Made by a program: the position numbers and the translations under genes. Below the pieces are notes generated by a model. The model did no database searches. It was not told the DNA's origin and saw only the letters and a program-made list of their open reading frames with translations. This document shows, piece after piece, positions 8,451 through 31,791 of a stretch of 32,000 bases of DNA. Numbering within the stretch: position 1 is the first letter of the stretch; each line of letters starts with the position of its first letter. The stretch is taken from positions 1-32,000 of the forward strand of contig SUTD01000003.1 of the NCBI GenBank assembly GCA_015063085.1, in the 5' to 3' direction. This DNA is from Methanocorpusculum parvum (lineage in GTDB: Archaea; Halobacteriota; Methanomicrobia; Methanomicrobiales; Methanocorpusculaceae).

Positions 8451-8779
8451 ACCGATGCTGCCTCCGAAGAACTGAAAAGAATCATTTCCGGTTCAACATA
8501 TGGTTTCACATGCGGGCTCAGGTATTCAAGAGATACTATGTCAACCTTTCTCTGGAAAAGGTCTTCGAGATAGTCTGCCAAATCAAGGAAGGTATCATAT
8601 GAACCTTTTCCTTCTGAAAAGGTGTAAAGAACATCAACATCACTCTCTGCTGTGTCTTCACCACGAGATACTGATCCAAAAATCCCAATAGTATCGATAA
8701 AGAAACGCTCACGTATCTCGTGGAGATGCTCTCTGAGTTTTGTGAGGACGTCCTCTTTGATACTGACGTAGGCAGACAT
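8447..8779 (-). CDS. mntA: MntA-like nucleotidyltransferase antitoxin
   Basis: 110 aa. GIFGSVSRGEDTAESDVDVL matches the minimal NTase motif GSxxRG...DxD. It is translationally coupled to hepT. Confidence 0.85.
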   Translation of the reverse strand: MSAYVSIKEDVLTKLREHLHEIRERFFIDTIGIFGSVSRGEDTAESDVDVLYTFSEGKGSYDTFLDLADYLEDLFQRKVDIVSLEYLSPHVKPYVEPEMILFSSSEAASV

Positions 8780-8822
8780 GTGCGTATGTATTTGTATGTC
8801 TTGGAAGATATTAGGGTTTCCC

Positions 8823-10295
8823 TCACAGCCACTTCGGCCACGGGAGACCGAATGTGGTTACCATTCCTGCGATTTCATCGCGGATGCCTCTATCGATTTT
8901 GAAGAGGAGGAAGAAGTAGATGACAGCTCCCGCACACACAGGAATCAGAGTGAGGACAACGTTGTCGAGCGGGACGAAGAGTTTGTAGACGAAGACAAAG
9001 AGTCCCATCGCTGCGGCCGCAAGGATGATGTGGAAAATCGGGCGGCGTTCGATTTTGACGGTGAGGTAGCGCTTAAGGAAGTGTGCGATTAAGACGGCGT
9101 TTACGCTGTAGCTGATTAAGGTAGCCACTGCTGCGCCGTTGATGCCGATCAAGGGGATTAAGATGCAGTTGAGCAGGATGTTGATGACAGCAGCGGATGC
9201 TGTTGCATAGAAGGACTGGCGGGCATGATCAGATGCGGTCAAGGCAACACCAAGCAGAGTGATGAATACAGAGATTACCTGCACGAGAAGAAGGATTGTA
9301 CAGGCAGCTGCCCCGGCTGCAAAGTCTGCTCCGTAGAAGTAGTAGAGGAGTTTGTCTGCTAAGAGCAGACCGCCGGTAAATACCGGCACCGCGAGGATTA
9401 AAGCGAAGGTGATTCCGCGGGATACCGGCGGGGCGATTTTGTCCCACTGATTGTTTGCGCTCCAGTTGCTGATCTTCGGAGTTAAGGTTGAGTAGATTGC
9501 GGTGGTGATGAAGGTGGCCGCTGTGGTGAACTGGAAGGCAGTGCGGTAGACTCCAACGTCTCCGTTTGTCAGGAAGTAGCCGATGAAGATGGTGTCCGCA
9601 TAGGCGAAGACGGTAGAGCCGGTACTGATGAGGAAAATCCAGAAGCCGTAGACGAAAAGAGATTTGACATGGCGGAAGCCGAATTTTGCGGGGCGGAAGG
9701 TGAAGTATTTGATGCAGAGAATACCGGAGAGGATGATGCCGACGATGTAGCCTCCGATAAGTCCATAGACTGTAAAGCCGAGAAGGACGGTGATGATTTG
9801 GATTACAATGCGGGCAAGTTCGGAGAAACCAAAGCCTACGCTGTAGATACCCATGTGTCCTAAACCCATTACACCCCGTGTGATAGTCTGACCAAAGAAT
9901 GCGAAGATGAGTGCTAAGACAATCCAGAATACAAGTTCATACTCTTTCAAGTCCGCAAAGAAGGGACTGATGGTGATAAGAATGAGTGTAGAGACGATGG
10001 TGAGAATTCCGCGAAGACAGGCATATGCTGTCAGATAGGCATTCTGTTCAGCTCCTTCTGAGATACGCTTGACCGCTGCCTGACCGAATCCGCCGTCTCC
10101 TATCATATTGAAGATGCCGAAGTATGCAACGAAGAGATAGTAAACTCCCATTAGGTCTTTTCCAAGCACGTGGGAAAAGAGCATGGTGGAGAGGAAACCG
10201 ATTCCGGTTATGGCAAGCGTGAAAATAAGCGAGAGTGTGCTCTGACGCTGAATTGCCGGAAGACGCATGAATCGGGAGACGAAGTGGATGTTCAT
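8823..10295 (-). CDS. Polysaccharide/oligosaccharide flippase (Wzx/MOP superfamily)
   Basis: 490 aa with about 12-14 TM helices. The length and hydrophobic pattern fit Polysacc_synt-type flippases. It is adjacent to sugar-nucleotide and glycosyltransferase genes. GC is native (about 57% on one sampled line). Confidence 0.75.
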   Translation of the reverse strand: MNIHFVSRFMRLPAIQRQSTLSLIFTLAITGIGFLSTMLFSHVLGKDLMGVYYLFVAYFGIFNMIGDGGFGQAAVKRISEGAEQNAYLTAYACLRGILTIVSTLILITISPFFADLKEYELVFWIVLALIFAFFGQTITRGVMGLGHMGIYSVGFGFSELARIVIQIITVLLGFTVYGLIGGYIVGIILSGILCIKYFTFRPAKFGFRHVKSLFVYGFWIFLISTGSTVFAYADTIFIGYFLTNGDVGVYRTAFQFTTAATFITTAIYSTLTPKISNWSANNQWDKIAPPVSRGITFALILAVPVFTGGLLLADKLLYYFYGADFAAGAAACTILLLVQVISVFITLLGVALTASDHARQSFYATASAAVINILLNCILIPLIGINGAAVATLISYSVNAVLIAHFLKRYLTVKIERRPIFHIILAAAAMGLFVFVYKLFVPLDNVVLTLIPVCAGAVIYFFLLFKIDRGIRDEIAGMVTTFGLPWPKWL

Positions 10296-10424
10296 GGAGA
10301 TTTGTTATGTGTTGATTTTGCAGTTGGGATACTCGTTTTTGACGTCAAGTTTGTAGGGATGGACTGCAAATATTACACCTATGTGTTGGTGAGGGGAGGT
10401 TATGAAAGTGTTGGGATAGGGATT

Positions 10425-10433
10425 AAACAAAAA
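10425..10433 (-). terminator. T-rich tract (TTTTTGTTT on the minus strand) immediately after the 675-aa gene stop
   Basis: AAACAAAAA on the plus strand, directly abutting the stop codon at 10434-10436. Confidence 0.3.
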
Positions 10434-12461
10434 TTACGAGAAGATATTCATTCCCTGATTAGTGTAAACCAGACTGAGTGGATAAGTATTTTCCGTAAAC
10501 TGCTCCGTATTTTCTTCGGTCGACAGGATTTTGACAGTAGTTCCTGCCGAATCTTTGAGCCCCAATCCGTAAATTTCGTAGCAACTATTTCTATTTATTA
10601 CATACTTTACCAGATTCTCAACAGATACATCTTCTGAATACAACTTGTCAGCACCATTCCTGAACGAGTAGTAAGGGTAACCATATTTCTCAAATGCTTT
10701 GCCGGCGGCAAAATATCTTGAAGTATCATAATCAGTATAGACTGATGAAGAGAGAGGCAGGTAATTCTCAACGATGTCAAAAGAAGCTAACTCCTGTTCC
10801 GTGAAGAAGTGAACCTCACCAAACTGAGTGCCTGCAAAAACAGGGCTGTCCCTTGATTCAAGAATAAGTGGAGACGTTACTACCAGTAACATACAGAGAA
10901 TAACCGTGACAACTGCGCCATTGAATTTCCCAGTATGTTTTTTATTCCAGAGATTCCCTATAACCACAGCCCCTACAGCCATAATTACTGCAAATATTGG
11001 TGAGAGGACAAGCCTGACTCTATCCAGTTCGAGATCTCCGCTGATAAACATCTCAAACAAATCCATGACTCCAGGAATGAATACTATTGCGAGAACTACT
11101 CCTGCCATGCCCAACATTGCAATCTTTTTATCAATGATTTTTGGAGACAACAGAGCGATTACTCCCGGTAGTAATACCAGAATAATCGATGCACTAGCTA
11201 TGGCATTAATCCACGCATGTCCTAAATTCCCAAGATTGGCTACTATATCAAATGATGAACTTAACACAGAAACAACACTATCTGTATCAAATGCAGAACT
11301 CGGAGAAGCAGCGGAGACAGAACCAATAGGAAGCCAATCAGGTAATGGGATGTTATAAAACTGATTCGAGAGACGGTTTATCAGCCATGAAAAATCATAA
11401 GGACCATGTGTAATTCCAAATAATGCAATTAAGTAGAACGAAACCGTGAGCACAATTTGAGAAGCAGTTATCCTATGGTGATAGATAAAATATAATCCAA
11501 GAATACCTGTGAATACCAGCACAATAAGAATTAACTGTGCATGATGCACAAAGATCATGTACATCATAACAAGGAGTGTGAGAATCAGGGATGAGAGAGA
11601 AACACCGTCTGACTGCTTTTTAAAGAAGAAGAAAAGAACAATTACAAAAGCGATTGTTGCATGCATCCTGGGCATTGGGTAGATAGCATACCAGATTACC
11701 GCAGGGATTGTTATGTATAATAACGCAGAGAGAAGTGCAAGAGATTTAGATTTGGTAAAGTGCTTGGCAAGGGAGTAGATAAATACCAAAGACACGACTA
11801 ACAATGGGGTTGATGTGAGGTATAAGACTGTATATGTCGGGAGACCAGAAATCAAGGAAGCTATTACAGACTCAATATGGAATAAACAGAAATCCATGTA
11901 TTGCCCAAGTATGGGTGATACGAAGCCGTCCACAAGAATGGTTTCTGTCCAGGCAAGGTGAATTGGAATGTCTGTCCAACCATAATAGTAATCATGGGTA
12001 AATACTGTTGAGAACACATGGAGCGACAAAGTTGCTATAAGTTGGAATAATACAACAGGCTTTCTTGGACTGGGACTGAAGATTTCCAAAAGTACCAAGA
12101 AATAGAGCAACCCTATTAACACCAGATGGAAGAGATTGCAACTGTTTGTTATGAAAATCCAGGCTAAGGCAATGCAGAAGATAATCCAAAATATCTTTGA
12201 CAGATTTCTTTGACTGAGGTAATTAGGGAGGATTAAGTCATCAAATAATTTGTTTTCACATGGATTGGAGAACTTCTTTCTGTTTATGATAAGGATGACT
12301 GATATAATTGAAAGGGCCATGAGAATTGGAGATCCTTTCACCATAATCAGATATTGTCCACTCATAAAGAGAACAACATATGCTAATATCGGAAGTATTA
12401 ATGTGAGATAGGGGATTATTGGAGAGAGATAATGGAATACACAAAATATTCTATCCAACAT
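10434..12461 (-). CDS. Large polytopic membrane protein with a C-terminal soluble domain. Candidate glycan polymerase or GT-C-like enzyme, function unassigned.
   Basis: 675 aa with at least 15 hydrophobic helices across aa 1-520, then a roughly 150-aa hydrophilic tail. ATG start. AT-rich (about 37% on one sampled line) compared with its neighbours. It sits between the flippase and wecC. Confidence 0.65.
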   Translation of the reverse strand: MLDRIFCVFHYLSPIIPYLTLILPILAYVVLFMSGQYLIMVKGSPILMALSIISVILIINRKKFSNPCENKLFDDLILPNYLSQRNLSKIFWIIFCIALAWIFITNSCNLFHLVLIGLLYFLVLLEIFSPSPRKPVVLFQLIATLSLHVFSTVFTHDYYYGWTDIPIHLAWTETILVDGFVSPILGQYMDFCLFHIESVIASLISGLPTYTVLYLTSTPLLVVSLVFIYSLAKHFTKSKSLALLSALLYITIPAVIWYAIYPMPRMHATIAFVIVLFFFFKKQSDGVSLSSLILTLLVMMYMIFVHHAQLILIVLVFTGILGLYFIYHHRITASQIVLTVSFYLIALFGITHGPYDFSWLINRLSNQFYNIPLPDWLPIGSVSAASPSSAFDTDSVVSVLSSSFDIVANLGNLGHAWINAIASASIILVLLPGVIALLSPKIIDKKIAMLGMAGVVLAIVFIPGVMDLFEMFISGDLELDRVRLVLSPIFAVIMAVGAVVIGNLWNKKHTGKFNGAVVTVILCMLLVVTSPLILESRDSPVFAGTQFGEVHFFTEQELASFDIVENYLPLSSSVYTDYDTSRYFAAGKAFEKYGYPYYSFRNGADKLYSEDVSVENLVKYVINRNSCYEIYGLGLKDSAGTTVKILSTEENTEQFTENTYPLSLVYTNQGMNIFS

Positions 12462-19688: not shown

Positions 19689-22600
19689 TTACACTGCTTT
19701 CCACACGCCGTTTTCTTCGACAAGAAGTCCTGATGCAGAAGCGGCATCAATTCCTGCCTCAATACGCTGTTTTACCTGTGCTGTGGCCTTGAATCCAAGA
19801 GAAAGAGCGGTCTGTTTTACTAAGTCAGCCTTCGGAGTTGCGAACTGCTTTTCGAGGACAATTCTTGCGGCAAGCCCGATTTCCTCTAAGGAAACGTCTG
19901 CAATAGACCACTTGCCTTCACGCTCGCGGGCAGTGAGTTCTCCTCCTGCTATTGAGTAGAATTTTTCTGCATCGCGCGTCAGTGTTCCTTCAGCAGCAGA
20001 TGCCTCGGCAAGGTTTACAATCCGTTCCTTGATTGCCGCAGTCATTCTCGGAACAGAGCCGAGTTCTTTGACGCGGGCGATTAAGAGCGACTCGGAGATT
20101 GGACCTTCGGCTCTGACAATCTCAACGAGAGCGGTCTGCAGAACTGAGTCATGAACAGAGGCAAACTGGTTGTAGCTCTGGAGAACACAGGAATCACAGC
20201 AGACATACGGCACGAAGCATGCAGAGGAGGTTTGCATCGGAACTTCTTCCGGTAACTCTTCTTCAATCTCTTCGACTGCGTCTGCCGCTGGAATTTCCGG
20301 TTCAGCCGATAACTTCAGCGGCTCTTTCTTTGCGGCCTCCTCAAGGAAGTCTAAGAGCACTTTTGTGCATGATGCCGGATGCTGGAACCATTCCGGAGAC
20401 CAGATGCGGATAAGATTCCATCCAAGCCCTTCCAAAACCTGTCCTCTGAGGCGGTCGCGGTCGCGTGCGTCTGCGGCAGACCAGTAGAACGGTCCGTCGC
20501 AGAGAATTCCTGCCATGTAAACGCCTTCCGTTTCCGGATGGAGAACTGCCAGGTCGATTCTGAATCCTGCACAGCCGACATTTCTGGCGACCGCATAGCC
20601 TTTGTCCTCGAGCATGCGGGCAACGGTTTCCGGGAAGAGATCGGCAACATCGGAACTGATGTCCTCGCCTGCGGCAAGCGGTGCCGCATTTCTGGTCTCT
20701 GCATAGGTCAGGAATGCAGAAAGAGCCGCAACGCCGTCCGGTGTGTCAGATTCGACCGGTAAGTCGTAGCCTCTGAAGTTTGCAAAGACCACACAGCGCT
20801 CGCGGGCACGCGTGATTAAGACATTTAAGCGGCGCTCGCCGCCGGTCTGGTTGAGCGGACCGAAGTTTCTGGAAAGCCGATGGTTCTCGTCGAATCCGTA
20901 GCCGATGGATATAAGCATGGTGTCACGCTCATCACCCTGCACGGTTTCCAGATTCTTGACGAAGAAGTGTTCGCCGTTTTCAGGGCGCATGGCTGCTTCC
21001 ACATCCGGATTGTCGCGGAGGAGAATATCCACTTCGCGGCGAATCAGCTCCTGCTGACGGGTGGAGAAGGTAGCAACGCCTAACGTTTTGTTTGGGAATC
21101 TGCGGTAGTAGTCAAGGACAGCCTCGGCAACCGCTTTGGCTTCACCCCGGTTGACGCCTGCCTTTCCGCGCTCATAGACCGTATCCGGGAGATGGACAAG
21201 CGAGAGACCCAAGTCATCGGTATCGTGCATTGGAGACGGGAAGACCTGCAGCGTTCCGTCATAGAACTCCGCGTTGGAGACGGCAATCAGAGACTCATGC
21301 CGCGAGCGGTAGTGCCAGCGAAGCCGTTTGGTAACAAACGACTGCTTGCAGACATGCAGCAGGCTTTCCATATCGGTGATGCCTGCGGTACTTTCCTCCT
21401 CCTCATCGTCTTCTGCGCCGCCAATCTGATCGAAGAAGGTGGTCGGCGGAAGCTGACGGGAATCTCCCATGACAACCAACTGCCGTCCGCGCATCAGTGC
21501 CCCTAAGGCATCCTCCGGCTTGACCTGACTTGCCTCATCGAAGATGATGATATCAAACATCACCGACCGCGGGTCTAAATACTGCGCAACGGATAAGGGA
21601 CTCATCATGAAGCACGGCTTAATCTTCTGGATAAGTGAACCCGACTTGGTCATCAGAGAGCGAATCGACATGTGACCGCGTTTTCTGTTGAACTCGCCGG
21701 TTAAGACTCCCATCTCCGACTCGCGGGATGCCCCGGTGAAGAGTTCCGGAATATTTCCGTCCAGAATCTGCACGAGACGTTTTGCGTTGGATGCAACCTG
21801 CTGGCGGTCAAACTCTTTGAACGCCGCAATCTTTTGCTCATGCGGCATCTGCGAGAAGTGGGCAAGGATTGGACGCTGCTGGTATGCCTCTTTGAGGAGT
21901 GCATCGGCATAGCCGGTTAAGAATGCCGGAATCAGGGCATCATGGTCAATCTTGTCCGTTAAGATAAGCGGGAGAACCGGTGCTGCCGCAGTTCCTGCGC
22001 AGACTTCTGCGTACGCAAGCAGTTTGCTCCACTCCTCAAGCCGGTCGATGTCGGTAATCCAGATGTCAGCCTGACGCCGCATCTGGGCAAATGTCAGGTC
22101 GTCCGGAATCTCATCGATTCCCAGACGTTCATAGAGAAGGGCAGACTGTTCGCTGTGCTCCTTTGCCGCGGCTTCGAGGTCGGCAAAGAGGCCTGCCATA
22201 ACCTCCGGGTCCAGCGTCTTGTCTGCGATGCGGGATACCGTCTGCTCGGTGATTAAGCCCTCGGAAATCATGGTGCGGATGGCAGAAATCCAGTCGCGGT
22301 ACGCAGAAAGAACCGAAGCATCGGTGTCCTCACCGTTCCAGACCGGAGCAAAGAGGGAGCGGTAACTCCGTTCCTCGGAAAGCCATCCGTCCCTGTCCGT
22401 CAGATAGTTTCTTGCCTCCTTCAAATCGGAGAGAATCACATGGTCTGCCGGAAGCGAACCGCCGTAGTATCCGCGAAGCTCCTCTTTCAGCCGTTTGAAG
22501 TCGCCGGAGAAGAGTTTGCTGATGACGTTCTTCTCCGAGTACTTCATGAACTCGGAGTAGAGGCGGGCAGGGTTTCTGGCGAAAATCTCCGGCGTGAAGA

Positions 22601-24395
22601 TGCCGAGAATCTTCTGGCGTGTCTCGGAGAGCTTCTTCATGCGGGAGATTAAGCGGTCAACCGCTTCGGTGTTGTCCCATAAGCGGTTAGCTAAAATCTC
22701 CGGCGTTGCCGTGAACTCGGAGGAAAGCGAGCGGCAGATTTCCATCATGAGCGGAACGTCCGTCTCGCTTCGCGGGATCGGAATCTCTGCCGCTTCGGAT
22801 ACGGCACGCATTGCGCAGACCAGACGCTCGATTCCGTCGCGGTAGGATACGGTGGCGTCATGAATTTCATCCCGGTCTGCGGGAAGAATCATCCCTGGTC
22901 TGGTCTCAGCCCATGGGTGCGTGGAGAGGCTTTCTCCGTCACGGAGAATGGACGGGATGTAGGATTCGATATCCGCTAATGCTGATACTGCCGCCTGATA
23001 ATCCTCCGGTGTGATTGCTGACGCATTTTCGACTGCTACCTTCGGCAGGCGGAAGTTCTTTCTGCCCGGACCGTTTTCGAACTCGTAGCGGTACTGTTCC
23101 CGGATGCCGAAGAGATCATACGGCGAGAATCCGCAGGCGCCGATTGGCTCACGCAGTTCACTGCAGTAGCCGGAAAGCTCCGTCTTCAGTGCTTCGATCT
23201 GCGTCGAGTCGCGGGAGTCAACAGCAGGAGAGGACGGATGCTGAATACAGCGTTCGAGTTCCCGGATGAACTCAACCTTCTTTGCGGTCTGGCTGTGGAG
23301 TTCCAGGCAGAAGCGGGAAAGACCGGCACTGTCCAGTCTTCGCTTGACAACTTCCAAGGCAGCCATCTTTTCGCTGACGAAGAGAACGGTCTTGCCGGAA
23401 GCAAGCATCTCTGCTATCATGTTGGCGATGGTCTGGCTTTTTCCGGTTCCCGGCGGACCTTCGACCACCAAGTTCTTTCCGGCCTTTGCCTCGCGAATGA
23501 CTGCAAGCTGCGAGGAGTCGGCATCCACGATGTTGCAGCAGTCTCCTGCTGCCTCCGGCAGGTCTACGGATTCCGCCGGGGCTTCTGCCGGGTGGAAGAT
23601 GGCGTTGATTAAGGGATTGTCCTCGATTGCAAACTCCTCGCCCCAGCTTGCCGGGTCAAGGTCCTTGAACATCACATACTTCTTGAAGCTGAAGAGGTCA
23701 AGCACGACCTCCGGGCAGAGCGTCCAGCCCTTTTCTTTGATGATTTCCTCAACAGACTCAAAGAATGCGCTGACATCGGCGGCACTTTCCGGATGCCCTA
23801 AATCCGGCAGTTCGATTCCCTGCTCGGCAAACTTGGCGGAAAGCGATAAGGAGACAACAGGATCTTCGCCTGACCAGCGCAGGGTATAGTTTTCTTTGAC
23901 TTTCTGCCGTTCCAAATCGACCGGCAGTAAGAGAAGCGGAGCTTTTAAGGGTTTGGCGGATTCGTTTTCCGTCCACTGGACAAAGCCGACGGCAAGATAG
24001 AGCGTTGGATATCCCTGCTCTTCAAAGACGGTCCGGCTTTTGTTCTGGAGGCTGTAGAGTTTCTTTCTCAGCTCAATATCGGTATAGGGAGTATCTAAGA
24101 CAAGGTCGGTATGCTTTGCGCTTTTGGAGAAGATTGGGTATTTCCAGATGTTCTTTTCTTCGGGAGCAGAAGAGGTATCCTTTTCTCCCGGCTGGAACTT
24201 CATGCCTTTCTCGTCCAAGACAAGGGATTGGTATATCTCGGCTAAGTGGGATTCGACAATCTCTATTGACCTCGCGGCAGAGGGTTTGTAGTTTAGGAGA
24301 TTATTTCGAAGAGTCAGGTCGAGCAGGCGGTTTCGCAGTTCTTCCAGATCTGATGTGCCTGTTGTCATTGTGTAGTATATGGGGGTTTGGAGCAT
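19689..24395 (-). CDS. Giant SF1 (Upf1-like) helicase: DUF4011-like N-terminus, AAA_11/AAA_12 helicase core, Vsr/DUF559-like REase domain, DUF3320-like tail
   Basis: - **N-terminus:** LLDLTLRNNLLNY and APLLLLPVDLER.
- **Helicase core:** Walker A GPPGTGKSQT (aa 313-322), motif II IIFDEASQ (aa 950-957), VVMGDSRQLPPT, TVQGDERD, NVLITRARE.
- **Nuclease-like domain:** GFRIDLAV...CDG...RDRDRLRGQVLEGLGWNLIRIWSPEWF (aa about 1255-1340).
- **Start:** possibly M10 at 24368. Confidence 0.9.
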   Translation of the reverse strand: MLQTPIYYTMTTGTSDLEELRNRLLDLTLRNNLLNYKPSAARSIEIVESHLAEIYQSLVLDEKGMKFQPGEKDTSSAPEEKNIWKYPIFSKSAKHTDLVLDTPYTDIELRKKLYSLQNKSRTVFEEQGYPTLYLAVGFVQWTENESAKPLKAPLLLLPVDLERQKVKENYTLRWSGEDPVVSLSLSAKFAEQGIELPDLGHPESAADVSAFFESVEEIIKEKGWTLCPEVVLDLFSFKKYVMFKDLDPASWGEEFAIEDNPLINAIFHPAEAPAESVDLPEAAGDCCNIVDADSSQLAVIREAKAGKNLVVEGPPGTGKSQTIANMIAEMLASGKTVLFVSEKMAALEVVKRRLDSAGLSRFCLELHSQTAKKVEFIRELERCIQHPSSPAVDSRDSTQIEALKTELSGYCSELREPIGACGFSPYDLFGIREQYRYEFENGPGRKNFRLPKVAVENASAITPEDYQAAVSALADIESYIPSILRDGESLSTHPWAETRPGMILPADRDEIHDATVSYRDGIERLVCAMRAVSEAAEIPIPRSETDVPLMMEICRSLSSEFTATPEILANRLWDNTEAVDRLISRMKKLSETRQKILGIFTPEIFARNPARLYSEFMKYSEKNVISKLFSGDFKRLKEELRGYYGGSLPADHVILSDLKEARNYLTDRDGWLSEERSYRSLFAPVWNGEDTDASVLSAYRDWISAIRTMISEGLITEQTVSRIADKTLDPEVMAGLFADLEAAAKEHSEQSALLYERLGIDEIPDDLTFAQMRRQADIWITDIDRLEEWSKLLAYAEVCAGTAAAPVLPLILTDKIDHDALIPAFLTGYADALLKEAYQQRPILAHFSQMPHEQKIAAFKEFDRQQVASNAKRLVQILDGNIPELFTGASRESEMGVLTGEFNRKRGHMSIRSLMTKSGSLIQKIKPCFMMSPLSVAQYLDPRSVMFDIIIFDEASQVKPEDALGALMRGRQLVVMGDSRQLPPTTFFDQIGGAEDDEEEESTAGITDMESLLHVCKQSFVTKRLRWHYRSRHESLIAVSNAEFYDGTLQVFPSPMHDTDDLGLSLVHLPDTVYERGKAGVNRGEAKAVAEAVLDYYRRFPNKTLGVATFSTRQQELIRREVDILLRDNPDVEAAMRPENGEHFFVKNLETVQGDERDTMLISIGYGFDENHRLSRNFGPLNQTGGERRLNVLITRARERCVVFANFRGYDLPVESDTPDGVAALSAFLTYAETRNAAPLAAGEDISSDVADLFPETVARMLEDKGYAVARNVGCAGFRIDLAVLHPETEGVYMAGILCDGPFYWSAADARDRDRLRGQVLEGLGWNLIRIWSPEWFQHPASCTKVLLDFLEEAAKKEPLKLSAEPEIPAADAVEEIEEELPEEVPMQTSSACFVPYVCCDSCVLQSYNQFASVHDSVLQTALVEIVRAEGPISESLLIARVKELGSVPRMTAAIKERIVNLAEASAAEGTLTRDAEKFYSIAGGELTAREREGKWSIADVSLEEIGLAARIVLEKQFATPKADLVKQTALSLGFKATAQVKQRIEAGIDAASASGLLVEENGVWKAV

Positions 24396-25502: not shown

Positions 25503-26465
25503 GTGTTCGTGAGCGAAGAGATTGATATTGTCCGGCAGATGGAAGAAGACATCAGCAACGCGGAAAAGAAGCCGACAGTTATGGTTGCGATGCCTGCCTA
25601 TAATGAGGAACTCAGGATTGCAGAAACCGTTTCCGGCGTAAAGCCGTATGCTGATGTTGTGGTCGTTGTGGATGACGGTTCAAAGGATAAAACTGTTGCC
25701 GTTGCCGAGAAGGAAGGAGCAATGGTTCTCCGCCACAAGGTGAATAAAGGATACGGCGGAGCACTGCGGACAATTTTCCAGACAGCAAAGAAGTATAAGC
25801 CGGACATCCTGGTTATTATCGACTCAGACGGACAGCACAATCCGGCAGATGTTCCGCGGTTTGTGGCAAAGGTTGCCGAAGGATATGATGTGGTTATCGG
25901 CTCACGTTTCTTGACCGAGGAAAGCCAGAAGAAGATTCCCGGATACCGCAAACTCGGCATGAAGGTCCTGGATTCCGCGACCGTAATGGCGATGAACGGC
26001 GTTCATGTGAGTGATTCGCAGTCAGGATTTCGTGCATACACCCGCGAGGCATACAATGCAGTAAACATCTCCGGAAACGGGATGTCCGCTGGCTCAGAGA
26101 TTCTCATGCAGGTCTCCGACCGCAAGCTTTCGATTGGGGAGATTTCCATTTCCGTGCGGTATGATTTGGAGGATACGAGTTCCCAGAATCCAATCCGGCA
26201 TGGTATTTCTGTGCTGATGAATCTGATACGGTTTGTCTCTATCCGACGGCCGATGACGTTCTTTGGGATTGGCGGTGGACTGGTGTTTGTGCTTGGATGT
26301 GCTGTTGGTATCTGGGCTCTGAATATCTTTATGTCAAGCGGGGCATGGCCTGTTACGATGACGCTTGTTGGCGGACTGATTGTGATTGTTGGGTTGCTGC
26401 TGATGACCACGGGGTTGATTTTGTATTCAATTTCACAGATGGTGAATATGGTTGGTGGGAGATAA
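25503..26465 (+). CDS. GT2 polyprenol-phosphate glycosyltransferase with a 2-TM C-terminal anchor (DPM1/GtrB/AglJ-like)
   Basis: MPAYNEE, VVVDDGSKD, IDSDGQH (DxD) and GFRAY blocks, then two C-terminal TM helices. The track start is GTG 25503. ATG 25539 (MEEDISN) fits better with the TATA ATATATAATA at 25481-25490. Confidence 0.85.
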   Translation: MFVSEEIDIVRQMEEDISNAEKKPTVMVAMPAYNEELRIAETVSGVKPYADVVVVVDDGSKDKTVAVAEKEGAMVLRHKVNKGYGGALRTIFQTAKKYKPDILVIIDSDGQHNPADVPRFVAKVAEGYDVVIGSRFLTEESQKKIPGYRKLGMKVLDSATVMAMNGVHVSDSQSGFRAYTREAYNAVNISGNGMSAGSEILMQVSDRKLSIGEISISVRYDLEDTSSQNPIRHGISVLMNLIRFVSIRRPMTFFGIGGGLVFVLGCAVGIWALNIFMSSGAWPVTMTLVGGLIVIVGLLLMTTGLILYSISQMVNMVGGR

Positions 26466-26598
26466 GACTACCACTAAAAACAGATTTGAAATATATTCTC
26501 TATTTTAATTAAATTGAGATTCTAAGTACTCTCAGAATCTTCCTAACTAGTTTGGATAATGGTCCATATCAACGCATTTCCTTCTTAGGATTTCCAAG

Positions 26599-26610
26599 AA
26601 AAAAAAAAAA
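26599..26610 (-). terminator. Oligo-T (T12) terminator after the ATPase/nuclease cassette
   Basis: A12 on the plus strand, 37-48 nt downstream of the TAG stop at 26647-26649. It is the longest homopolymer in the window. Confidence 0.5.
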
Positions 26611-26646
26611 CATCACATTTACTGCACAAAAATAGAAATGGGATCT

Positions 26647-27243
26647 CTAGAATGGCATACTGTAATTATTAATACACTGATTGAAATTAACAGAACTACC
26701 TGAGCATGCTATTGACAAAAAATTATTTGGGGTGTCATTTACCCCCAATGCACGCATTGAAGTGGCTCTCTTGTGGACACGAGATGATTCAATATGATTT
26801 ATGCAGACATAATACTCCTGAAATGATGAAAGGAAGTTTTTCTGATTATAACACTCCTTAGCAACAATTTTACAGTATTCAATCAGACATTTTAAACCTT
26901 TGAGCTGTTTGGAAACTTCAATCTTATTTGCCCCACCACGTTTTAGTTCAATATATATTATACAATTTGAAATATTCATATCAGTCCCATCTACAATCAA
27001 ACAATAATCTGCGTGTTTTTCCTTGAATGGTAAGTACTTATCCAAATCACTTTTAATGAGAACATAATTATGAGGAACTTTTACAATATTTACACTATAT
27101 TGGTGACAGGAATTTGACTCAGACAAAGTAAGATTAACATATTTATCATTCAAAGAAGAAGTGTAACTCGCATTTATAAATTCAGCTTTGAAGATATTTG
27201 TTATGAGAGGTAAATCAGGATGTGGATGAGGGAGAGGAGTCAT
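26647..27243 (-). CDS. Small PD-(D/E)xK-motif protein (predicted restriction-endonuclease-fold nuclease), partner of the upstream ATPase
   Basis: KHADYCLIVDGTDMNISNCIIYIELKRGG gives D83 or D89, a 14-20 aa spacer, then E103-L-K105 in a beta-strand-like hydrophobic context. ATG 27243 lies 2 nt after the ATPase stop. The alternative GTG 27255 overlaps it by 10 nt. About 30-35% GC. I recognise no family. Confidence 0.5.
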   Translation of the reverse strand: MTPLPHPHPDLPLITNIFKAEFINASYTSSLNDKYVNLTLSESNSCHQYSVNIVKVPHNYVLIKSDLDKYLPFKEKHADYCLIVDGTDMNISNCIIYIELKRGGANKIEVSKQLKGLKCLIEYCKIVAKECYNQKNFLSSFQEYYVCINHIESSRVHKRATSMRALGVNDTPNNFLSIACSGSSVNFNQCINNYSMPF

Positions 27244-27245
27244 GC

Positions 27246-28643
27246 TTAATTCCACAGTAGTTTATCCTGAATTTCATTCATCATATTAATTGAGTCATCA
27301 AAACTTGAGATTGAAATTCCCCAATTCTCATCCACATGCACAGGAACTAAAGTATATGCATCATTTGGCTTCTTAGATTTACTTGATGAATACTGCTCCG
27401 TGGCGTAAATCTTAATATTTTTTGGGTTGAGCACCTCAGACTCATCGTATCCATACATCTCCATTATATCATTACTTTTAGAATTATTCTGGTTAAATAA
27501 TATCAACGTGTTGAACTCTCTTATAATATAATCACTATGTGTAGTAATAAATATCTTAATTCCAGCATTTGCCAGTCTTACAAATAATCTTGCGATAAGA
27601 CGCTGGTTTTCAGGATGAAGATTAAGTTCTGGTTCATCCACGATGAGATTTTCATTTTTCTGTGCGCGGTGACGCAAATAGTAATCTATATGGATCAACG
27701 CACGAGCAACACTTGAACTCTCAGTAAGTTGAAGTTTTGGAGAACGTGATTTTGATAACTTGGGGATAAAGATAACATCACCATCTTTATCAATTCCATA
27801 TGTACCTCCAACAATTTCACTAAATTTAGCCAAAATCTCTGGGTTTGATTGTGAGAGTGGACTCTCCAGATGAAGCGAATCAAGTTCCTGAATAAAAGTT
27901 ACATTATCTTTAACTGGAAGAGGGTATAGAGAATAGGAACTAAATAGAAATTCATGTATATCAATATCTTTATCTTTGGTTGCGGACTCACTAAGCTTTT
28001 CCACGATACGATTTCGATTCAAATATAATTCTTTTTTAAAGATACTAGCACCTGTTCTTTCAACACTGGCGATAAACGTATCAGAACCAAACACATTTTT
28101 AAACATCACACGCAGGATGGTATGACCAATAAGAGTCAATAAGAAAGTCGATGGGAGAGGAATTGTATCATTTTCATTAATATTTGATACATATAGTATC
28201 TTTTTATCGACATCAGTATTAAATACGAGTGATTCACCATATTTTACTTTAGTTGGTGCTGGAATAAGTACGTCTGAATCATCCAAAATAATCTGAAACT
28301 TTGAATTTTTAAATCTCTTTTCTGTTGATGCAAATACTCTGTAAAGAGTTTTTGAGTATATATCACAGATATTATTAAGTATATTTGAGTAGTTATCGAG
28401 ATACTTTCCAATATTTATTTCTAATACCTTGTTTTCCTTGAGTTCATCAGTATTTATATCAGATAAGTCAATAATTTCATCAGAATATTCGATAAGACCT
28501 GTTTTCAGAAAATTAAGAAACCCATAATATGCATATGTTACATAAGTTTTACCAGAATTATTCTTACCACAAATTACCGTGATATCTCCAGGGACTAGTT
28601 CTGCATGTTTTATAGCACCTATGTTATCAACTATTATCTTCAT
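27246..28643 (-). CDS. ABC-type ATPase of the AAA_15/AAA_21 class (the ATPase type found in OLD/GajA, PtuA and AriA)
   Basis: Walker A GKNNSGKT (aa 26-33), a roughly 270-aa insert, signature-like TESSSVARAL (aa 307-316), Walker B/D-loop LIVDEPELNLHP (aa 333-344), H-loop ITTHSD (aa 366-371), and a roughly 95-aa C-terminal extension. A possible TATA, TATACTAAAA (28671-28680, minus strand), lies about 33 nt upstream. Confidence 0.85.
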   Translation of the reverse strand: MKIIVDNIGAIKHAELVPGDITVICGKNNSGKTYVTYAYYGFLNFLKTGLIEYSDEIIDLSDINTDELKENKVLEINIGKYLDNYSNILNNICDIYSKTLYRVFASTEKRFKNSKFQIILDDSDVLIPAPTKVKYGESLVFNTDVDKKILYVSNINENDTIPLPSTFLLTLIGHTILRVMFKNVFGSDTFIASVERTGASIFKKELYLNRNRIVEKLSESATKDKDIDIHEFLFSSYSLYPLPVKDNVTFIQELDSLHLESPLSQSNPEILAKFSEIVGGTYGIDKDGDVIFIPKLSKSRSPKLQLTESSSVARALIHIDYYLRHRAQKNENLIVDEPELNLHPENQRLIARLFVRLANAGIKIFITTHSDYIIREFNTLILFNQNNSKSNDIMEMYGYDESEVLNPKNIKIYATEQYSSSKSKKPNDAYTLVPVHVDENWGISISSFDDSINMMNEIQDKLLWN

Positions 28644-29104
28644 AAAAATCTGTATTGTATTATTTGTTTTTTTTAGTATAGAGTTGTTTTGTTGAGAGTA
28701 GTGTATCGTACCAAAAAAAAGAATCGTCTTTGAGTTGTGTCAGATTCAACTTTAGTGTGTCACTCAACAACACTAGGATTGCCCAAGTTACACAACATAA
28801 AAAGGATTCATTTTTTGGAGGGAGGGGGTGGTACAGCACAAATTTAGATTATGCCCCTTAAAATATAAGGCAAGACCTTCGTTATACCAGAGAACACAAC
28901 TACAACACAAACCAAAAGCAGTGGTGTAAAGTCCTCAATTGGAATGCAGTTTTAATAAGAACATAGTAAATCAAAAACGCAACTGCAACAGAGATTGTTA
29001 TTGAAAAATAGGTAGCTCCAACTCAGACTACGAATTGACTTATATAATTAAGAGTATAATTACATTGATTATAGATACATACTTCAGAAAGACAAATGGA
29101 ATAA

Positions 29105-29514
29105 AAAAAACGAACTATCAATAATATGGCACAGATTATTGATATTCCAGCAGATGCAAGAACTCGGAGCTGAATATATTTATCAAGAGTATAGAACATT
29201 ACTCCATTATGTTACATCATGAATCATTCCTTCCCCAATTTTGAGATTGTGTAAGTCAAGTTGTCTCTGGAATTCCACCCAGACAAGTTTGTCAACACTG
29301 GTTTAAACATGCACCCTCTAAACAACTAGATTGCAGAATTGTCAGGGATTGAATCTGGACGATTGGGTAAATACCATAAAGAAAGATGATTATTAATCTC
29401 GTGTTCTATGGCAATATCAGAGAGATTGTAACAGACTTTAAGTGACCGGGTTTTAAACATCAGGACAACATCAACATTAGGATGCCCAGCATTGGAAGAC
29501 TGATTATAGTACAT
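29105..29514 (-). pseudogene. Decayed transposase remnant with a DUF772 (InsH N-terminal, IS5/IS1182-like) domain
   Basis: The 62-aa ORF reads GHPNVDVVLMFKTRSLKVCYNLSDIAIEHEINNHLSLWYLPNRPDSIPDNSAI, matching the DUF772 consensus (grP.....ll.k.lllq.ly.lSd..le..l.d.l....Fl.......PD.st).
- **In-frame stop:** a TAG at 29326-29328 is followed by LFRGCM..., the expected FR..l continuation.
- **Frameshifted pieces:** further FYTLDKYIQLRVLASAGI and HIIDSS-like segments lie in other frames down to about 29110. Confidence 0.6.
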
Positions 29515-29784: not shown

Positions 29785-31791
29785 TTATGGTGATTTGTTC
29801 TGGAACATTATTGCAAGTCTTGTTATAAAAATAGCAAGAAAGATGTAGTTAATTATAGATAGTAAAAACATAAACACACTTACAAATGTAGATTCACCTG
29901 ATGTGGATGTATATAATGACAAGTAAGATGGAATATCATTAGTAAGTCCCCAAATATATTCTGTTAAATTAAATGAAGATGATTCTATGATGAGTTCATG
30001 TATATTCCAATAGAGGGTAATAAGTATAAAACTAATAACATTTACAATTCCTAAACAAATGAATGTTAATTTGCTATTTGTTCCATAGTCTGATAAACTC
30101 CAAAATATTCTAACAGGTATTTGTAGTATCTTGTGCTTTTTATACCATTTGTTCCAGTATATTTGACGTATATTTCGTTCTAAATATGATAATAAGTTTG
30201 GATTAATGCGAGATGTGGAAAGGCTAACGCCACTAAAATCAGTGTGTTTGTTTGCAAAATGTTTAGAATTACCTTTGAAGATAGTACTGGAATCAACAGA
30301 ACTCATTACAAATACTGCATCCTTAATGTTAGTGTATGAAAATATTGCCCCTTCTAGCTGACTATATGATAGGTATGCACCAGATAAATTTGCGTTTGAA
30401 AAATTTGCCCCCCTAAGATTAGCATGTGTCAAGTTTGCATTACTGAGATTCGCTCTCTTAAAATTAACATTTTCAAGATTGCTATATGTGAAGTTTACCC
30501 CAACCAACGATGAATGCTCAAAATTGGCTCCTGAGAGATTCGATTCAAATATTGTCATACCATCCAATGATAAATGTGACATTTCAATATTTGGCATGTA
30601 AACATGTTTCAAAACAATGTTCTCATAATCTTTAATCATTTTACGTTGCTCAAGGAATCTGATATATTTTGACCAATTCTCTTGAGACCAGAGTTCATAA
30701 AATGAATTATACATCTCTTGCCTTTTATTAGTTACAGAATGTGATAATTTTGGAGAGATGGAATTCTCATCAAAACAGAGAGAAGACAATATATAGAAAG
30801 AATCACGGATGTTGGACGATAAATAGTGCTTAAATTCATCAACTGCAGCTGTCTTATTTGAGACATAGTGTTCACAACACATAGCCAATATTTTTGGATA
30901 CTCAGTACTAGTTTGGGTTAATTTTTCTAACTTTTCAAAATCAGAACAATTTATATTACAACCAATTGATTTGATAAATTCATAAATTACCTTTCCCCTA
31001 TCATGTTCATTATCCATTTTATTCATCCTTCCTAAATATATATAATCATCCTTGAATTTCAAATCACAAATATGCGTGTTGTGATATCTAAGTCTTACTA
31101 TCAATATTTTAAGAAAATTGACCAATTTTTGTTTTTTTGATACACCAACCTCATTATATATCTCATCTGTTGAAGAGACCATGATTATAGCCCTTCGAGA
31201 ACTTTCTACTTTATCTATAACAAATCCATTTCGAATGTAGTATGAAGCTGCACCATATTTTGAATCAAGATAGATTAATTCATATTCTTTATCACATCTA
31301 AAACATTTATCCTTACCTCGATTATGATTAAGATACCTTAGTGTACGAAATATGGAGTATATTAAAGAATAACCAATATGGCAACCACAATATCTACTAT
31401 CTCTTCCCAAAGCTTTTATATTTAAGTATGCTTCGTCATTAGGGCCAATTTTTTCACCTAATGTATAGTAACCTACAAAATTATCTTTCCAATACAGAAG
31501 GAATGTTCTGTAGTCATCATTATTTATTGCCTCAGCAATAAGATGATTTCTTATCTCAGGTTCTTCGGAATGGAATTTAATAACAGTAGATAAGTAGGGT
31601 ATACTTTCATTCTTTTTGTGTGTGTGACTCGAAAATAGACTCACCAATTTATTGCCAGATGGTTCTATTGTATATATCACATTTCCTTTTGAATCAATAG
31701 GATAACATGAACAATAACAGATACAATATCTTGTAAAATCTTCTAAAGAAATCGTGTTTTTCTTATCTCGTATTTTATCTAGTAACCACAT
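29785..31791 (-). CDS. Multidomain protein: N-terminal Cys cluster, GNAT-like acetyltransferase fold, unassigned linker, pentapeptide-repeat beta-helix, C-terminal 2-TM module
   Basis: - **Size and start:** 668 aa, ATG start.
- **Cys cluster:** CICYCSCYP (aa 23-31).
- **GNAT-like blocks:** FLLYWKDNFVGYYTL, RDSRYCGCHIGYSLIYSIFRTL, YGAASYYIRNGF (aa about 95-195).
- **Pentapeptide repeats:** about 19 consecutive pentads (aa about 406-505, e.g. NLSGANFEHSSLVGVNFTYSNLENVNFKRANLSNANLTHANLRGANFSNANLSGAYL).
- **C-terminus:** an SDYG motif, then TM helices at aa about 575-597 and 634-660. Confidence 0.8.
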   Translation of the reverse strand: MWLLDKIRDKKNTISLEDFTRYCICYCSCYPIDSKGNVIYTIEPSGNKLVSLFSSHTHKKNESIPYLSTVIKFHSEEPEIRNHLIAEAINNDDYRTFLLYWKDNFVGYYTLGEKIGPNDEAYLNIKALGRDSRYCGCHIGYSLIYSIFRTLRYLNHNRGKDKCFRCDKEYELIYLDSKYGAASYYIRNGFVIDKVESSRRAIIMVSSTDEIYNEVGVSKKQKLVNFLKILIVRLRYHNTHICDLKFKDDYIYLGRMNKMDNEHDRGKVIYEFIKSIGCNINCSDFEKLEKLTQTSTEYPKILAMCCEHYVSNKTAAVDEFKHYLSSNIRDSFYILSSLCFDENSISPKLSHSVTNKRQEMYNSFYELWSQENWSKYIRFLEQRKMIKDYENIVLKHVYMPNIEMSHLSLDGMTIFESNLSGANFEHSSLVGVNFTYSNLENVNFKRANLSNANLTHANLRGANFSNANLSGAYLSYSQLEGAIFSYTNIKDAVFVMSSVDSSTIFKGNSKHFANKHTDFSGVSLSTSRINPNLLSYLERNIRQIYWNKWYKKHKILQIPVRIFWSLSDYGTNSKLTFICLGIVNVISFILITLYWNIHELIIESSSFNLTEYIWGLTNDIPSYLSLYTSTSGESTFVSVFMFLLSIINYIFLAIFITRLAIMFQNKSP
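30217..30594 (-). repeat. Coding tandem array of 15-nt-periodic pentapeptide repeats inside the 668-aa ORF
   Basis: The DNA shows reiterated GCxAATTT/ATT(A/T)GC-type units. The translation gives A(N/D)(L/F)xx pentads. Boundaries are approximate. Confidence 0.75.

Follow-up and report, generated by a model that had tools for sequence, protein, structure and literature searches.

Two adjacent minus-strand genes in a low-GC island of the gut/rumen methanogen Methanocorpusculum parvum raise the question whether they form a defence system of a new kind. The initial annotation of the window (the whole stretch of 32,000 nt of contig SUTD01000003.1 that was analysed here) had proposed a translationally coupled pair of an ABC-type ATPase and a small protein with a PD-(D/E)xK motif as an undescribed archaeal defence cassette. 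Dyads of an OLD-ABC ATPase and a protein with a restriction endonuclease (REase) fold are already present in the literature (PMC12137116; PMC12839542; bioRxiv 10.1101/2024.01.29.577857). As far as can be judged from gene and protein sequences, the locus is an ordinary, horizontally acquired and divergent archaeal copy of a catalogued pair type and no new system. Two "hypothetical proteins" (MBE6506800.1 and its neighbour E7Z72_02580) can thereby be given the label of a PDC-M47 / PD-T4-4-like ABC ATPase plus nuclease defence pair, and no new class of immunity is opened by the locus.

Organisation and surroundings of the locus

The elements of the locus that are needed for the following analyses are given below in the order of their coordinates in the window.

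26599-26610, minus strand: T12 tract, 36 nt past the TAG of gene B, likely an archaeal oligo-T terminator
26647-27243 (ATG, 198 aa) or 26647-27255 (GTG, 202 aa), minus strand: gene B, PDC-M47B-type protein, predicted nuclease effector
27243-27255, minus strand: A/B junction, 2-nt gap (TAA-GC-ATG) or 10-nt overlap (GTG), read directly
27246-28643, minus strand: gene A, OLD-family ABC ATPase (465 aa, PDC-M47A / PD-T4-4_A type), predicted sensor and regulator
28644-28812, minus strand: leader of the cassette, non-coding, conserved
29326-29514, minus strand: IS5-type transposase fragment, 62 aa (Pfam DUF772; score 27.5 bits, cutoff 23.1)

An ORF check of the window placed both reading frames at the minus-strand coordinates claimed for them. 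Gene A (NCBI MBE6506800.1, labelled "hypothetical protein") ends with the stop codon TAA at 27248-27246, and the neighbouring gene B (E7Z72_02580) starts with the ATG at 27243, 2 nt after this stop codon, or with the GTG at 27255, by which the two genes overlap by 10 nt. Both geometries are as initially described and are consistent with translational coupling. The ATG form of 198 aa is the one annotated by NCBI, and the residue numbering of B used here refers to this form. In 78 related loci the start of the longest B ORF was located between -121 and +6 nt relative to the end of A, the commonest offsets being -1 (24 loci), -16 (16 loci) and -4 (13 loci).

The T12 run was found at 26610-26599, and the AT-rich island was recovered as a drop of the GC content from about 0.49 to about 0.32 at approximately position 26500, which remains low up to the end of the window. 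The pair is flanked by glycosyltransferase and epimerase genes on one side and by the IS fragment and a gene for a pentapeptide-repeat protein on the other side; the 62-aa IS5-type fragment bears out the description of a dead insertion sequence nearby. No restriction-modification (R-M) or BREX locus was found around the pair, which stands alone. At a distance of 2.2 kb there is a gene for a 1568-aa PDC-S37 / ProA-like protein. The pentapeptide-repeat protein and the IS fragment were considered as a third component and rejected, due to the fact that the block homologous to a 91%-identical cassette (L102) spans only the leader, A and B.

Motifs and family of the ATPase A

Gene A codes for an OLD-family ABC ATPase in which every ATPase motif is intact. 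The motif set comprises the Walker A motif G26-K-N-N-S-G-K32-T33, E195-R196-T-G at the Q-loop position, the signature S309-S311, the Walker B motif with D336-E337 (DEPELNLHP) and the H-loop T367-T-H369-S-D. Across the homologue alignments of A, GxNNxGKT, ERTG (R196), SSS (309-311), DEPELNLHP and TTHSD were all invariant, so that the description of this motif set is upheld.

Searches against Pfam assigned A to AAA_15 (1.1e-18) and AAA_21, with weak matches to RecF and SMC_N. By far better matches were obtained with defence-system models of PADLOC. PDC-M47A (PDLC04664) matched at E 1.5e-142 and 473.8 bits over residues 1-465 and model positions 1-459 of 461, and PD-T4-4_A matched with PDLC04033 (E 3.3e-130 over residues 1-464) and PDLC04032 (2.3e-67). 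Secondary HMM matches were found to AriA (5.5e-24), Old, PtuA and GajA, those to the PtuA models (1e-8 to 1e-11) being confined to the C-terminal ATPase half. The AF2 model of A (pLDDT 83, pTM 0.84) has as its nearest solved folds PtuA, both Septu and retron-associated, the retron-Eco8 ATPase-nuclease, Rad50 and SMC heads, with E values between 1e-7 and 6e-10 for PtuA, the retron-Eco8 protein and Rad50. In comparison with the 91%-identical homologue, dN/dS was 0.07 for A and 0.27 for B, and both genes are thus under purifying selection.

Gene B encodes a predicted PD-(D/E)xK nuclease

A word-indexed protein search with B alone yielded two close relatives only, and the family emerged with an exhaustive HMMER search, which resulted in 262 homologue clusters (50% identity) of proteins of about 180-200 aa each. 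With the exception of one relative, all homologues found are at most 43% identical to B. The D...ExK arrangement, initially reported as the only recognisable feature of B, is by its conservation not a product of chance: in a set of 79 independently collected homologues, D79 is present in 78, E99 in 78 of 78, K101 in 71 (with Q in 7) and Q113 in 77, while E42 and D66 are acidic in every member. The near-invariance of D, E and K supports this part of the initial description, but the second aspartate that had been included (D89 there, D85 in the ATG form) is variable (D in 33, N in 13, E in 11) and is for this reason no catalytic candidate.

The AF2 model of B (pLDDT 82, pTM 0.83) has D79 at the beginning of strand 80-84 and both E99 and K101 within strand 94-102. 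Q113 is carried by helix 107-132, after which strand 142-150 follows. The conserved D...(D/E)xK signature is thereby modelled on a beta-hairpin and a helix as in PD-(D/E)xK cores, and a PD-(D/E)xK (restriction-endonuclease-like) core is predicted for B. Foldseek returned weak matches only, the best with E 0.03 (PDB) and 0.025 (BFVD) and no single one significant; most entries of this weak list are PD-(D/E)xK proteins, namely BsmI, PfoI, the Avs3 nuclease domain, MUS81, HamA, FokI, RecE, UL24 and cap-snatching endonucleases, and Holliday-junction resolvases are also present. Members of the B family match HSDR_N, VRR_NUC, DUF2726 and UL24 of Pfam weakly, no above-threshold Pfam match was obtained for B of the window, and a sequence-profile search of the PDB with the B family returned nothing at E<=10. 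A Pfam match of B to DUF7625 (E 0.003; 18 bits, with the cutoff at 27) was treated as noise, since it occurred in only 1 of 57 B family members.

With the PADLOC models, B matched PDC-M47B (PDLC04668) at E 3.6e-28 over residues 25-196 and model positions 9-184 of 186, as well as four further PDC-M47B models (PDLC04665, 04667, 04669 and 04666). The resemblance to NucS/Shedu-like nuclease cores that had been suggested for the ELKRG context was not recovered, as no match of B to Shedu, DUF4263 or NucS was found in Pfam and PADLOC at E<=1. The view that the ATPase has no Toprim or HNH partner was confirmed in Pfam and PADLOC: A has no Toprim domain up to its end at residue 465, no Toprim match was found in B and the neighbouring genes, and no HNH match was found in B.

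Relation to named defence systems

PDC-M47 ("phage defence candidate", multi-gene no. 47 of PADLOC-DB v2) is one of 145 candidates that were found by "guilt-by-embedding" (Payne et al., bioRxiv 10.1101/2024.01.29.577857). The models of both its proteins are matched by the proteins of the window, and the adjacent same-strand order of A and then B, the overlapping junction and the conserved residues are shared as well. The copy of the window differs in being archaeal, in standing alone and in the divergence of B, which is at most 43% identical to most members. Embedding in type I R-M, BREX or DISARM loci was the route by which PDC-M47 was discovered and is no recognition rule. As PDC-M47 is a candidate system, membership supplies a name and no proven function; a literature search by this name found no paper.

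PD-T4-4 came to light in E. coli by an experimental selection for protection against T4 (Vassallo et al. 2022, PMC9519451). Its organisation is that of the pair of the window: two genes, one for an AAA_15-type OLD-family ABC ATPase and, after it, one for a predicted PD-(D/E)xK nuclease of about 200 aa, make up the operon. The activity of PD-T4-4 against T4 is experimental, that of the Methanocorpusculum copy predicted. While PD-T4-4_A is matched by A at full length, A shares only about 28-30% identity with the versions of E. coli and Klebsiella plasmids, with differing middle inserts and a differing C-terminal part, and B has no match to the PD-T4-4_B HMMs at E<=1. The PDC-M47B and PD-T4-4_B families nevertheless cross-match at about 1e-5 in both directions, and hhalign of the B family against PD-T4-4_B-type proteins gave a probability of 98.3% and an E value of 2.6e-14 with D, (D/E)xK and Q in register. 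By these alignments the B family is a homologous sister family of PD-T4-4_B and a different subfamily. The PD-T4-4 proteins form higher-order complexes, but none of 11 DNA substrates was cut by them in vitro (10.1101/2025.07.10.664194). An assignment of the PD-T4-4 effector as an HNH nuclease in one 2026 preprint was set aside, since it disagrees with three other sources and with the motif analysis.

The initial annotation had stated that matches of both genes to an already named system model would speak against an undescribed system. Both genes match PDC-M47A and PDC-M47B of PADLOC, A additionally matches PD-T4-4_A, and the B family is homologous to PD-T4-4_B; the claim that the system is undescribed therefore fails. 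The wider proposal of a coupled two-gene defence cassette of an ATPase and a PD-(D/E)xK-type nuclease is well supported by the family, the conserved residues, the synteny and the R-M/BREX embedding of relatives.

More distantly, the pair is probably like WonAB of Vibrio cholerae (AWB73975.1 and AWB73976.1) in architecture and logic. WonAB consists of an OLD-type ABC ATPase and a small protein with a variant REase fold, and the likeness is drawn from a published remark on the similar organisation of PD-T4-4. An arginine is present at the Q-loop position of both ATPases (R182 in WonA, R196 in A). The activity of WonAB depends on both genes, on the Walker and H-loop residues and on the nuclease lysine, and infection is aborted with an arrest of translation, in which the genomic DNA is not degraded (PMC12137116). 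In the same article (PMC12137116), the same architecture is ascribed to the "OLD-ABC ATPase + novel REase" operon that Krishnan et al. described in 2020. Septu (PtuAB), PARIS (AriAB), Gabija (GajAB) and P2 Old use the same kind of OLD/ABC ATPase sensor as A, but the effector is an HNH protein in Septu and a Toprim protein in PARIS, Gabija and Old, whereas the pair of the window has neither and no helicase partner. The HMM scores of A for AriA, Old, PtuA and GajA are more than 100 orders of magnitude weaker than those for PDC-M47A and PD-T4-4_A.

Synteny and distribution of the gene pair

Related loci were collected with the alignment of A, which resulted in 80 genomes with an A relative. A check of the synteny, on which the proposal of a functional pair depended, found a B homologue directly after A in 78 of them. 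At least 12 of the 80 pairs are embedded either in type III R-M loci, between Mod and Res (Mod-A-B-Res), or in BREX loci by PglX/PglZ, and one relative adjoins a type I S subunit; by the queries used, 68 of the 80 relatives are without R-M/BREX embedding, a figure that understates embedding. Other relatives are located on plasmids and in a temperate Vibrio phage. PD-T4-4-type pairs are almost the sole cargo of 4-5 kb ColE1-type plasmids (L006, L009) and are also carried by conjugative plasmids, on which they lie beside toxin-antitoxin (TA) genes and resolvases. The 91%-identical cassette adjoins an integrase and a KAP NTPase gene. The pair was present in at least 23 metagenome contigs, and its distribution is patchy in the manner of horizontally transferred genes.

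Two other archaeal copies (L030 and L101) also stand alone amid housekeeping genes. That these copies and that of the window travel and persist self-contained without R-M or BREX argues for an autonomous function. With its low-GC island, the IS remnant and the 91%-identical copy on an integrase-bearing element, the locus is a further piece of evidence for a movement of bacterial-type defence modules into archaea.

Proposed mechanism and alternative explanations

The reading preferred here, with a probability of roughly 0.7, is that the pair is a horizontally acquired stand-alone PDC-M47 module from a sister branch of anti-phage PD-T4-4 that would work as follows. If PD-T4-4 and the remoter WonAB are taken as a guide, ATPase A probably senses infection and licenses nuclease B. 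A would dimerise head-to-head around two ATP molecules, and its C-terminal part would hold B in a complex that stays inactive in uninfected cells. A virus-derived cue, which may be a protein or a replication intermediate, would shift the ATP-dependent state of A and so license B. B would then cut nucleic acid and the infection would be stopped in the archaeal cell, probably at the cost of that cell (abortive infection). As the putative substrate of B, RNA (tRNA or rRNA) is considered no less probable than DNA.

It is unlikely that the pair is a selfish addiction or stabilisation module of a TA-like kind, in which a toxic nuclease B would be restrained by A and loss of the pair would be lethal. 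Such a role would suit the small ColE1-type plasmids with almost no other cargo and the conjugative plasmids with TA genes and resolvases; the Pfam text for AAA_21 reads "putative AbiEii toxin, type IV TA system", and WonB is toxic when overproduced (PMC12137116). This toxicity, however, depends on WonA and its ATPase activity, by which simple sequestration is ruled out according to the authors (PMC12137116). PD-T4-4 moreover came from a selection for phage resistance (PMC9519451), and frequent embedding in R-M/BREX operons suits defence better, although defence and addiction roles are not mutually exclusive. The same embedding could be taken to mean that the module is a "backup effector" dependent on neighbouring R-M or BREX genes, as a BREX survey proposes for OLD-ABC plus nuclease dyads (PMC12839542), and that the stand-alone archaeal copy is an orphan with little or no activity; the discovery of the module by "guilt-by-embedding" and the at least 12 relatives between Mod and Res or by PglX/PglZ fit this proposal. 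It is considered quite improbable in view of the majority of relatives without detected embedding (understated as embedding is by the queries), the stand-alone archaeal copies amid housekeeping genes, and the function of PD-T4-4 (PMC9519451) and WonAB as isolated two-gene operons in heterologous hosts. Both genes of the window are furthermore intact and under purifying selection, and the pair recurs in metagenome contigs.

A housekeeping role in DNA repair or recombination, in which a RecF/RecN/Rad50-like ATPase would act together with a structure-specific nuclease, is very improbable. The patchy distribution, the low-GC island with an IS remnant next to the pair, the integrase next to the 91%-identical copy and the relatives on plasmids and in a phage all speak against it, no conserved chromosomal repair context of the pair was seen among the related loci, and defence-system models are the best matches by far, even though the fold of A is similar to Rad50 and SMC heads in addition to PtuA, A matches RecF and SMC_N weakly, and MUS81 and Holliday-junction resolvases are among the weak fold matches of B. 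The stand-alone PDC-M47 module could also be conceived in a narrower form, in which the PDC-M47B branch would be an RNA-targeting (tRNA/rRNA) abortive-infection nuclease and the leader a cis-regulatory RNA or small RNA involved in control or sensing. This form is speculative and rather unlikely to be correct; if it were true, an ATPase-nuclease abortive system of this kind would for the first time be shown at work in a methanogenic archaeon.

Leader region and expression signals

Three further elements were distinguished within the leader upstream of gene A.

about 28680-28667, minus strand: A/T-rich TATA-like motif TATACTAAAAAAAA, about 37 nt before the ATG of A, plausible and putative only
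about 28720-28713, minus strand: T8 after the leader hairpin
about 28809-28721, minus strand: leader hairpin of about 90 nt

At the other end of the cassette, the homology with L102 stops at the stop codon of B, and the T12 terminator itself is thus not conserved. Folding of the leader RNA gave a minimum free energy of -31.5 kcal/mol with z = -2.4. No Rfam match was found anywhere in 26400-29400. The leader is not common to more distant archaeal-type relatives, and a scan of metagenome and viral contigs with a 19-mer of the leader returned two unrelated chance matches only. A 59-aa ORF at 28660-28839 on the minus strand was rejected as a conserved gene, due to a TTG to TAG stop in L102 and an unconserved 5' part, and an integron attC-like hairpin was rejected after own inspection because the order of the GTTRRRY/RYYYAAC-like boxes does not fit an attC site. 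The homology between the locus of the window and L102 begins abruptly at about 28812. As a separate observation, the 170-nt leader stands out by its unusual conservation: it is identical to L102 at 171 of 180 nt without indels, the coding sequence of A being about 87% identical (pS 0.45).

Organization and genomic setting of the gene pair

The locus consists of two head-to-tail open reading frames on the minus strand, A and B, with the following features:

29326-29514, minus strand: IS5-type transposase fragment of 62 aa, N-terminal domain (Pfam DUF772, above gathering threshold)
28644-28812, minus strand: non-coding leader of 170 nt, homologous to that of the related locus L102
27246-28643, minus strand: gene A, ORF of 465 aa
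26647-27255, minus strand: gene B, 202 aa from GTG or 198 aa from the ATG at 27243
26610-26599, minus strand: T12 tract, 36 nt beyond the stop codon of B

The TAA stop codon of A (27248-27246) is followed 2 nt downstream by the ATG of B, and use of the alternative GTG start results in a 10-nt overlap with A. At approximately position 26500 the GC content falls from about 0.49 to about 0.32, and it does not recover within the window. The initial annotation had described the gene pair accurately: both ORFs, their junction, the T12 tract, the low GC content and the IS remnant were confirmed. The exact A and B proteins are deposited as E7Z72_02585 and E7Z72_02580, both "hypothetical protein", from a MAG of Methanocorpusculum parvum, a member of the Methanomicrobiales, and the locus was found again in at least 23 metagenome contigs. 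The IS5-type remnant, which is also kept in other metagenome copies (L093, L095 and L096), is located between the cassette and a gene for a 668-aa protein (29785-31791, minus strand) in the same low-GC island. This protein carries pentapeptide repeats at about residues 390-530, followed by a hydrophobic C-terminus; no Pfam, PADLOC or NCBIfam match was obtained for its N-terminal 380 aa or so, and it lies outside the conserved A+B cassette.

Assignment to a defence system family

Defence system models were scanned using PADLOC-DB v2. Gene A matched PDC-M47A (1.5e-142) and PD-T4-4_A (3.3e-130) over the full length, all other matches (AriA, NsnB, HEC-02A, Old, PtuA, GajA) reaching 5e-24 at best. 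Five PDC-M47B models were matched by B (best 3.6e-28), and no PD-T4-4_B model was. With both genes matching models of a named candidate system, the proposal that the pair represents an undescribed system has to be abandoned; instead, it is assigned to the PDC-M47 family with a probability of about 0.9.

The two genes of PD-T4-4 come from an ICE-like element of E. coli; they were recovered by selection for T4 resistance (PMC9519451) and have been described as coding for an AAA_15/ABC ATPase and a PD-(D/E)xK nuclease (PMC10952713; 10.1101/2025.07.10.664194; PMC12137116). For comparison of the B families, PD-T4-4-type pairs were gathered from plasmids. Their B proteins matched PD-T4-4_B strongly and PDC-M47B weakly (2e-5 and 6e-6), and a cyanobacterial PDC-M47B showed the reverse pattern, with a weak PD-T4-4_B match of 1.4e-5. 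In profile-profile alignment the two families were matched with 98.3% probability (E 2.6e-14, 125 columns), the D, (D/E)xK and Q motifs being in register. At the sequence level, these cross-matches and the alignment place PDC-M47 as a sister branch of PD-T4-4. New here, on a modest scale, are a PDC-M47 copy that is archaeal, divergent and apparently autonomous, and explicit evidence for the homology of PDC-M47B and PD-T4-4_B.

The ATPase and the predicted nuclease

In A, Pfam AAA_15 (1.1e-18) and AAA_21 were detected, and alignments with relatives revealed invariant Walker A (G26-x-N-N-x-G-K32-T33), E-R196-T-G at the Q-loop position, serine-rich signature (309-311), Walker B and D-loop (D336-E337-P-E-L-N-L-H-P) and H-loop (T-T-H369-S-D). 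The AF2 model was confident (pLDDT 83, pTM 0.84), and its nearest solved folds were PtuA of Septu and retron systems, the retron-Eco8 ATPase-nuclease and Rad50/SMC heads (E 6e-10 to 1e-7). A PDB sequence search returned the same neighbours, and neither search found a solved structure of A's own subfamily. Domains, motifs and fold matches thus identify A as an OLD-family ABC ATPase.

No Pfam family was assigned to B in the Pfam scan. An exhaustive HMMER search yielded homologues in 262 clusters at 50% identity, all proteins of 180-200 aa, and conservation was read from an alignment of 57 sequences and again from 79 ORFs that had been extracted independently from genomes. In both sets L40, P57, D79, E99, Q113, G116, C119 and Y123 (ATG numbering) were near-invariant, position 42 was always E or D and position 66 always D or E; K101 was near-invariant as well, with Q in its place in 7 of 78. 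D89, previously put forward as a catalytic residue in a numbering higher by 4, varies among homologues and should be dropped. In the AF2 model of B (pLDDT 82, pTM 0.83) D79 is at the N-terminus of strand 80-84, E99-x-K101 lies on the next strand (94-102) and Q113 on a long helix (107-132) that is followed by strand 142-150. This order, beta2-beta3-alpha-beta4, is that of the PD-(D/E)xK core; in B, a helix and additional strands come before it. Foldseek searches against PDB and BFVD gave no significant match (best E about 0.03), and the weak lists were dominated by PD-(D/E)xK enzymes (BsmI, PfoI, Avs3 nuclease domain, MUS81, HamA, FokI, AddAB, CinB, McrC, RecE-like exonucleases, an archaeal-virus resolvase, bunyavirus cap-snatching endonucleases and UL24/UL76). 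Several family members gave weak Pfam matches to HSDR_N, HSDR_N_2, VRR_NUC, DUF2726 or UL24, all of which belong to the PD-(D/E)xK superfamily. As modelled, B is very probably a divergent REase-fold nuclease, for which E42, D66, D79, E99, K101 and Q113 are newly defined as mutagenesis targets.

Distribution and genomic contexts of related pairs

In a scan of one genome per species, relatives of A were present in at least 505 species, of which the best 80 were inspected. These were almost all bacterial (cyanobacteria, methanotrophs, Desulfobacterota, Poribacteria, Chloroflexota and others), with one archaeal host, a Methanosarcinaceae MAG whose copy also stands alone among housekeeping genes. 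Immediately downstream of A, as the next ORF in the same orientation, 78 of these 80 loci had a B homologue, nearly always overlapping A, typically by 1, 4 or 16 nt. None followed A in the remaining loci L038 and L078, and in L025 (6392-7858, Binatia MAG) B is in two pieces separated by an insertion of about 0.8 kb; these cases look like occasional effector decay or replacement.

At least 12 of the 80 pairs were embedded in type III R-M or BREX loci, a lower bound obtained with single-sequence queries only. Examples of defence contexts are:

L001 and L002: Mod-A-B-Res, type III R-M
L004: BREX, in the order A-B-PglX-PglZ
L105: type I S subunit and YhcG nuclease adjoining the pair

In L002, the PDC-M47 pair is directly followed by another AAA_15/AAA_21 ATPase of 444 aa, which has a small ORF of 140 aa of its own downstream (8693-10460 for the two), two ATPase-plus-small-protein modules thus being stacked between Mod and Res. 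Related pairs were also carried by small ColE1 plasmids, conjugative plasmids and a temperate Vibrio phage. Pairs of this type are horizontally mobile and accumulate in defence loci.

Among the closer relatives, to which the Methanosarcinaceae copy also belongs, L102 is 91% (A) and 77% (B) identical to the window pair and adjoins a tyrosine integrase and a KAP NTPase. With dN/dS values of 0.07 for A and 0.27 for B between the two, both genes are under purifying selection, B evolving faster. The L101 and L107 pairs (about 55% identical) occupy the same chromosomal insertion site in two assemblies, directly after the biotin-carboxylase subunit of pyruvate carboxylase. Their neighbours are of archaeal type (PvlArgDC, NRD1_2), gene content from which an archaeal host is inferred, and the shared site points to an older insertion that another methanogen lineage has passed on vertically. 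A GGAGG Shine-Dalgarno sequence precedes A in both these copies and is absent from the window copy.

Leader upstream of A

The homologous stretch that the window shares with L102 has a sharp upstream boundary at about 28812 and extends no further than the stop codon of B. The leaders are 95% identical without indels, while synonymous sites of A differ at 45%. The leader contains imperfect direct repeats (GTTGAGTGACACA and GTTGAATCTGACACA). In the predicted fold (z = -2.4) it forms a hairpin of about 90 nt with T8 directly behind it, upstream of an A/T-rich putative promoter. It matched no Rfam family, was not found in more distant relatives of the pair, and a sequence scan for it elsewhere gave chance matches only. 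Peptide coding was rejected, as the overlapping 59-aa ORF is not conserved. From the two sequences compared, the leader may be an operator, an insulator or a small RNA.

Proposed mechanism and alternative explanations

The locus encodes an ABC ATPase and a putative nuclease, both intact, which are inherited together as an obligate pair with linked translation. A comparator in organization is WonAB of Vibrio cholerae, for whose activity the two genes, the residues of the ATPase and the lysine of the nuclease are all required; WonB does not remain stable unless active WonA is present, and its predicted docking site is on the dimerised C-terminal extensions of WonA (PMC12137116). Defence is abortive and begins after the start of phage DNA replication, translation being arrested without degradation of genomic DNA, so that an RNA target is suspected (PMC12137116). 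The E. coli PD-T4-4 proteins assemble into higher-order complexes and cut 0 of 11 DNA substrates in vitro, the authors' suggestions being that a viral cue was lacking or that the target is RNA (10.1101/2025.07.10.664194). By analogy, a dimer of A would keep B in an inactive complex. A cue from infection would then change the ATP cycle of A, whereby B would be licensed to cut nucleic acid and so abort the infection; in outline, this scheme appears reasonably probable.

Carriage of related pairs on tiny plasmids has suggested an addiction module resembling toxin-antitoxin systems, and the dependence of WonB toxicity on WonA argues against a simple mechanism of that kind. Given the embedded copies, strict dependence on R-M or BREX was also considered; it is unlikely because many copies stand alone and both PD-T4-4 and WonAB are autonomous. 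A housekeeping repair pair does not fit the patchy, mobile distribution.

Other genes in the window

In a further low-GC patch (GC 0.37-0.40), inside a surface-polysaccharide gene cluster, a 675-aa ORF (10434-12461, minus strand) had no Pfam or PADLOC match at 1e-5. A second, single-gene defence candidate is located 2.2 kb from the A+B pair: a 1568-aa DUF4011/SF1-helicase/MTES_1575-REase/DUF3320 protein (19689-24395, minus strand), which matched PADLOC PDC-S37 over the full length (E 0, 1520 bits), NCBIfam anti-phage ProA with 1274 bits, under the cutoff of 1500, and also Hhe. Unlike the A+B pair, its gene has a normal to high GC content (0.55).
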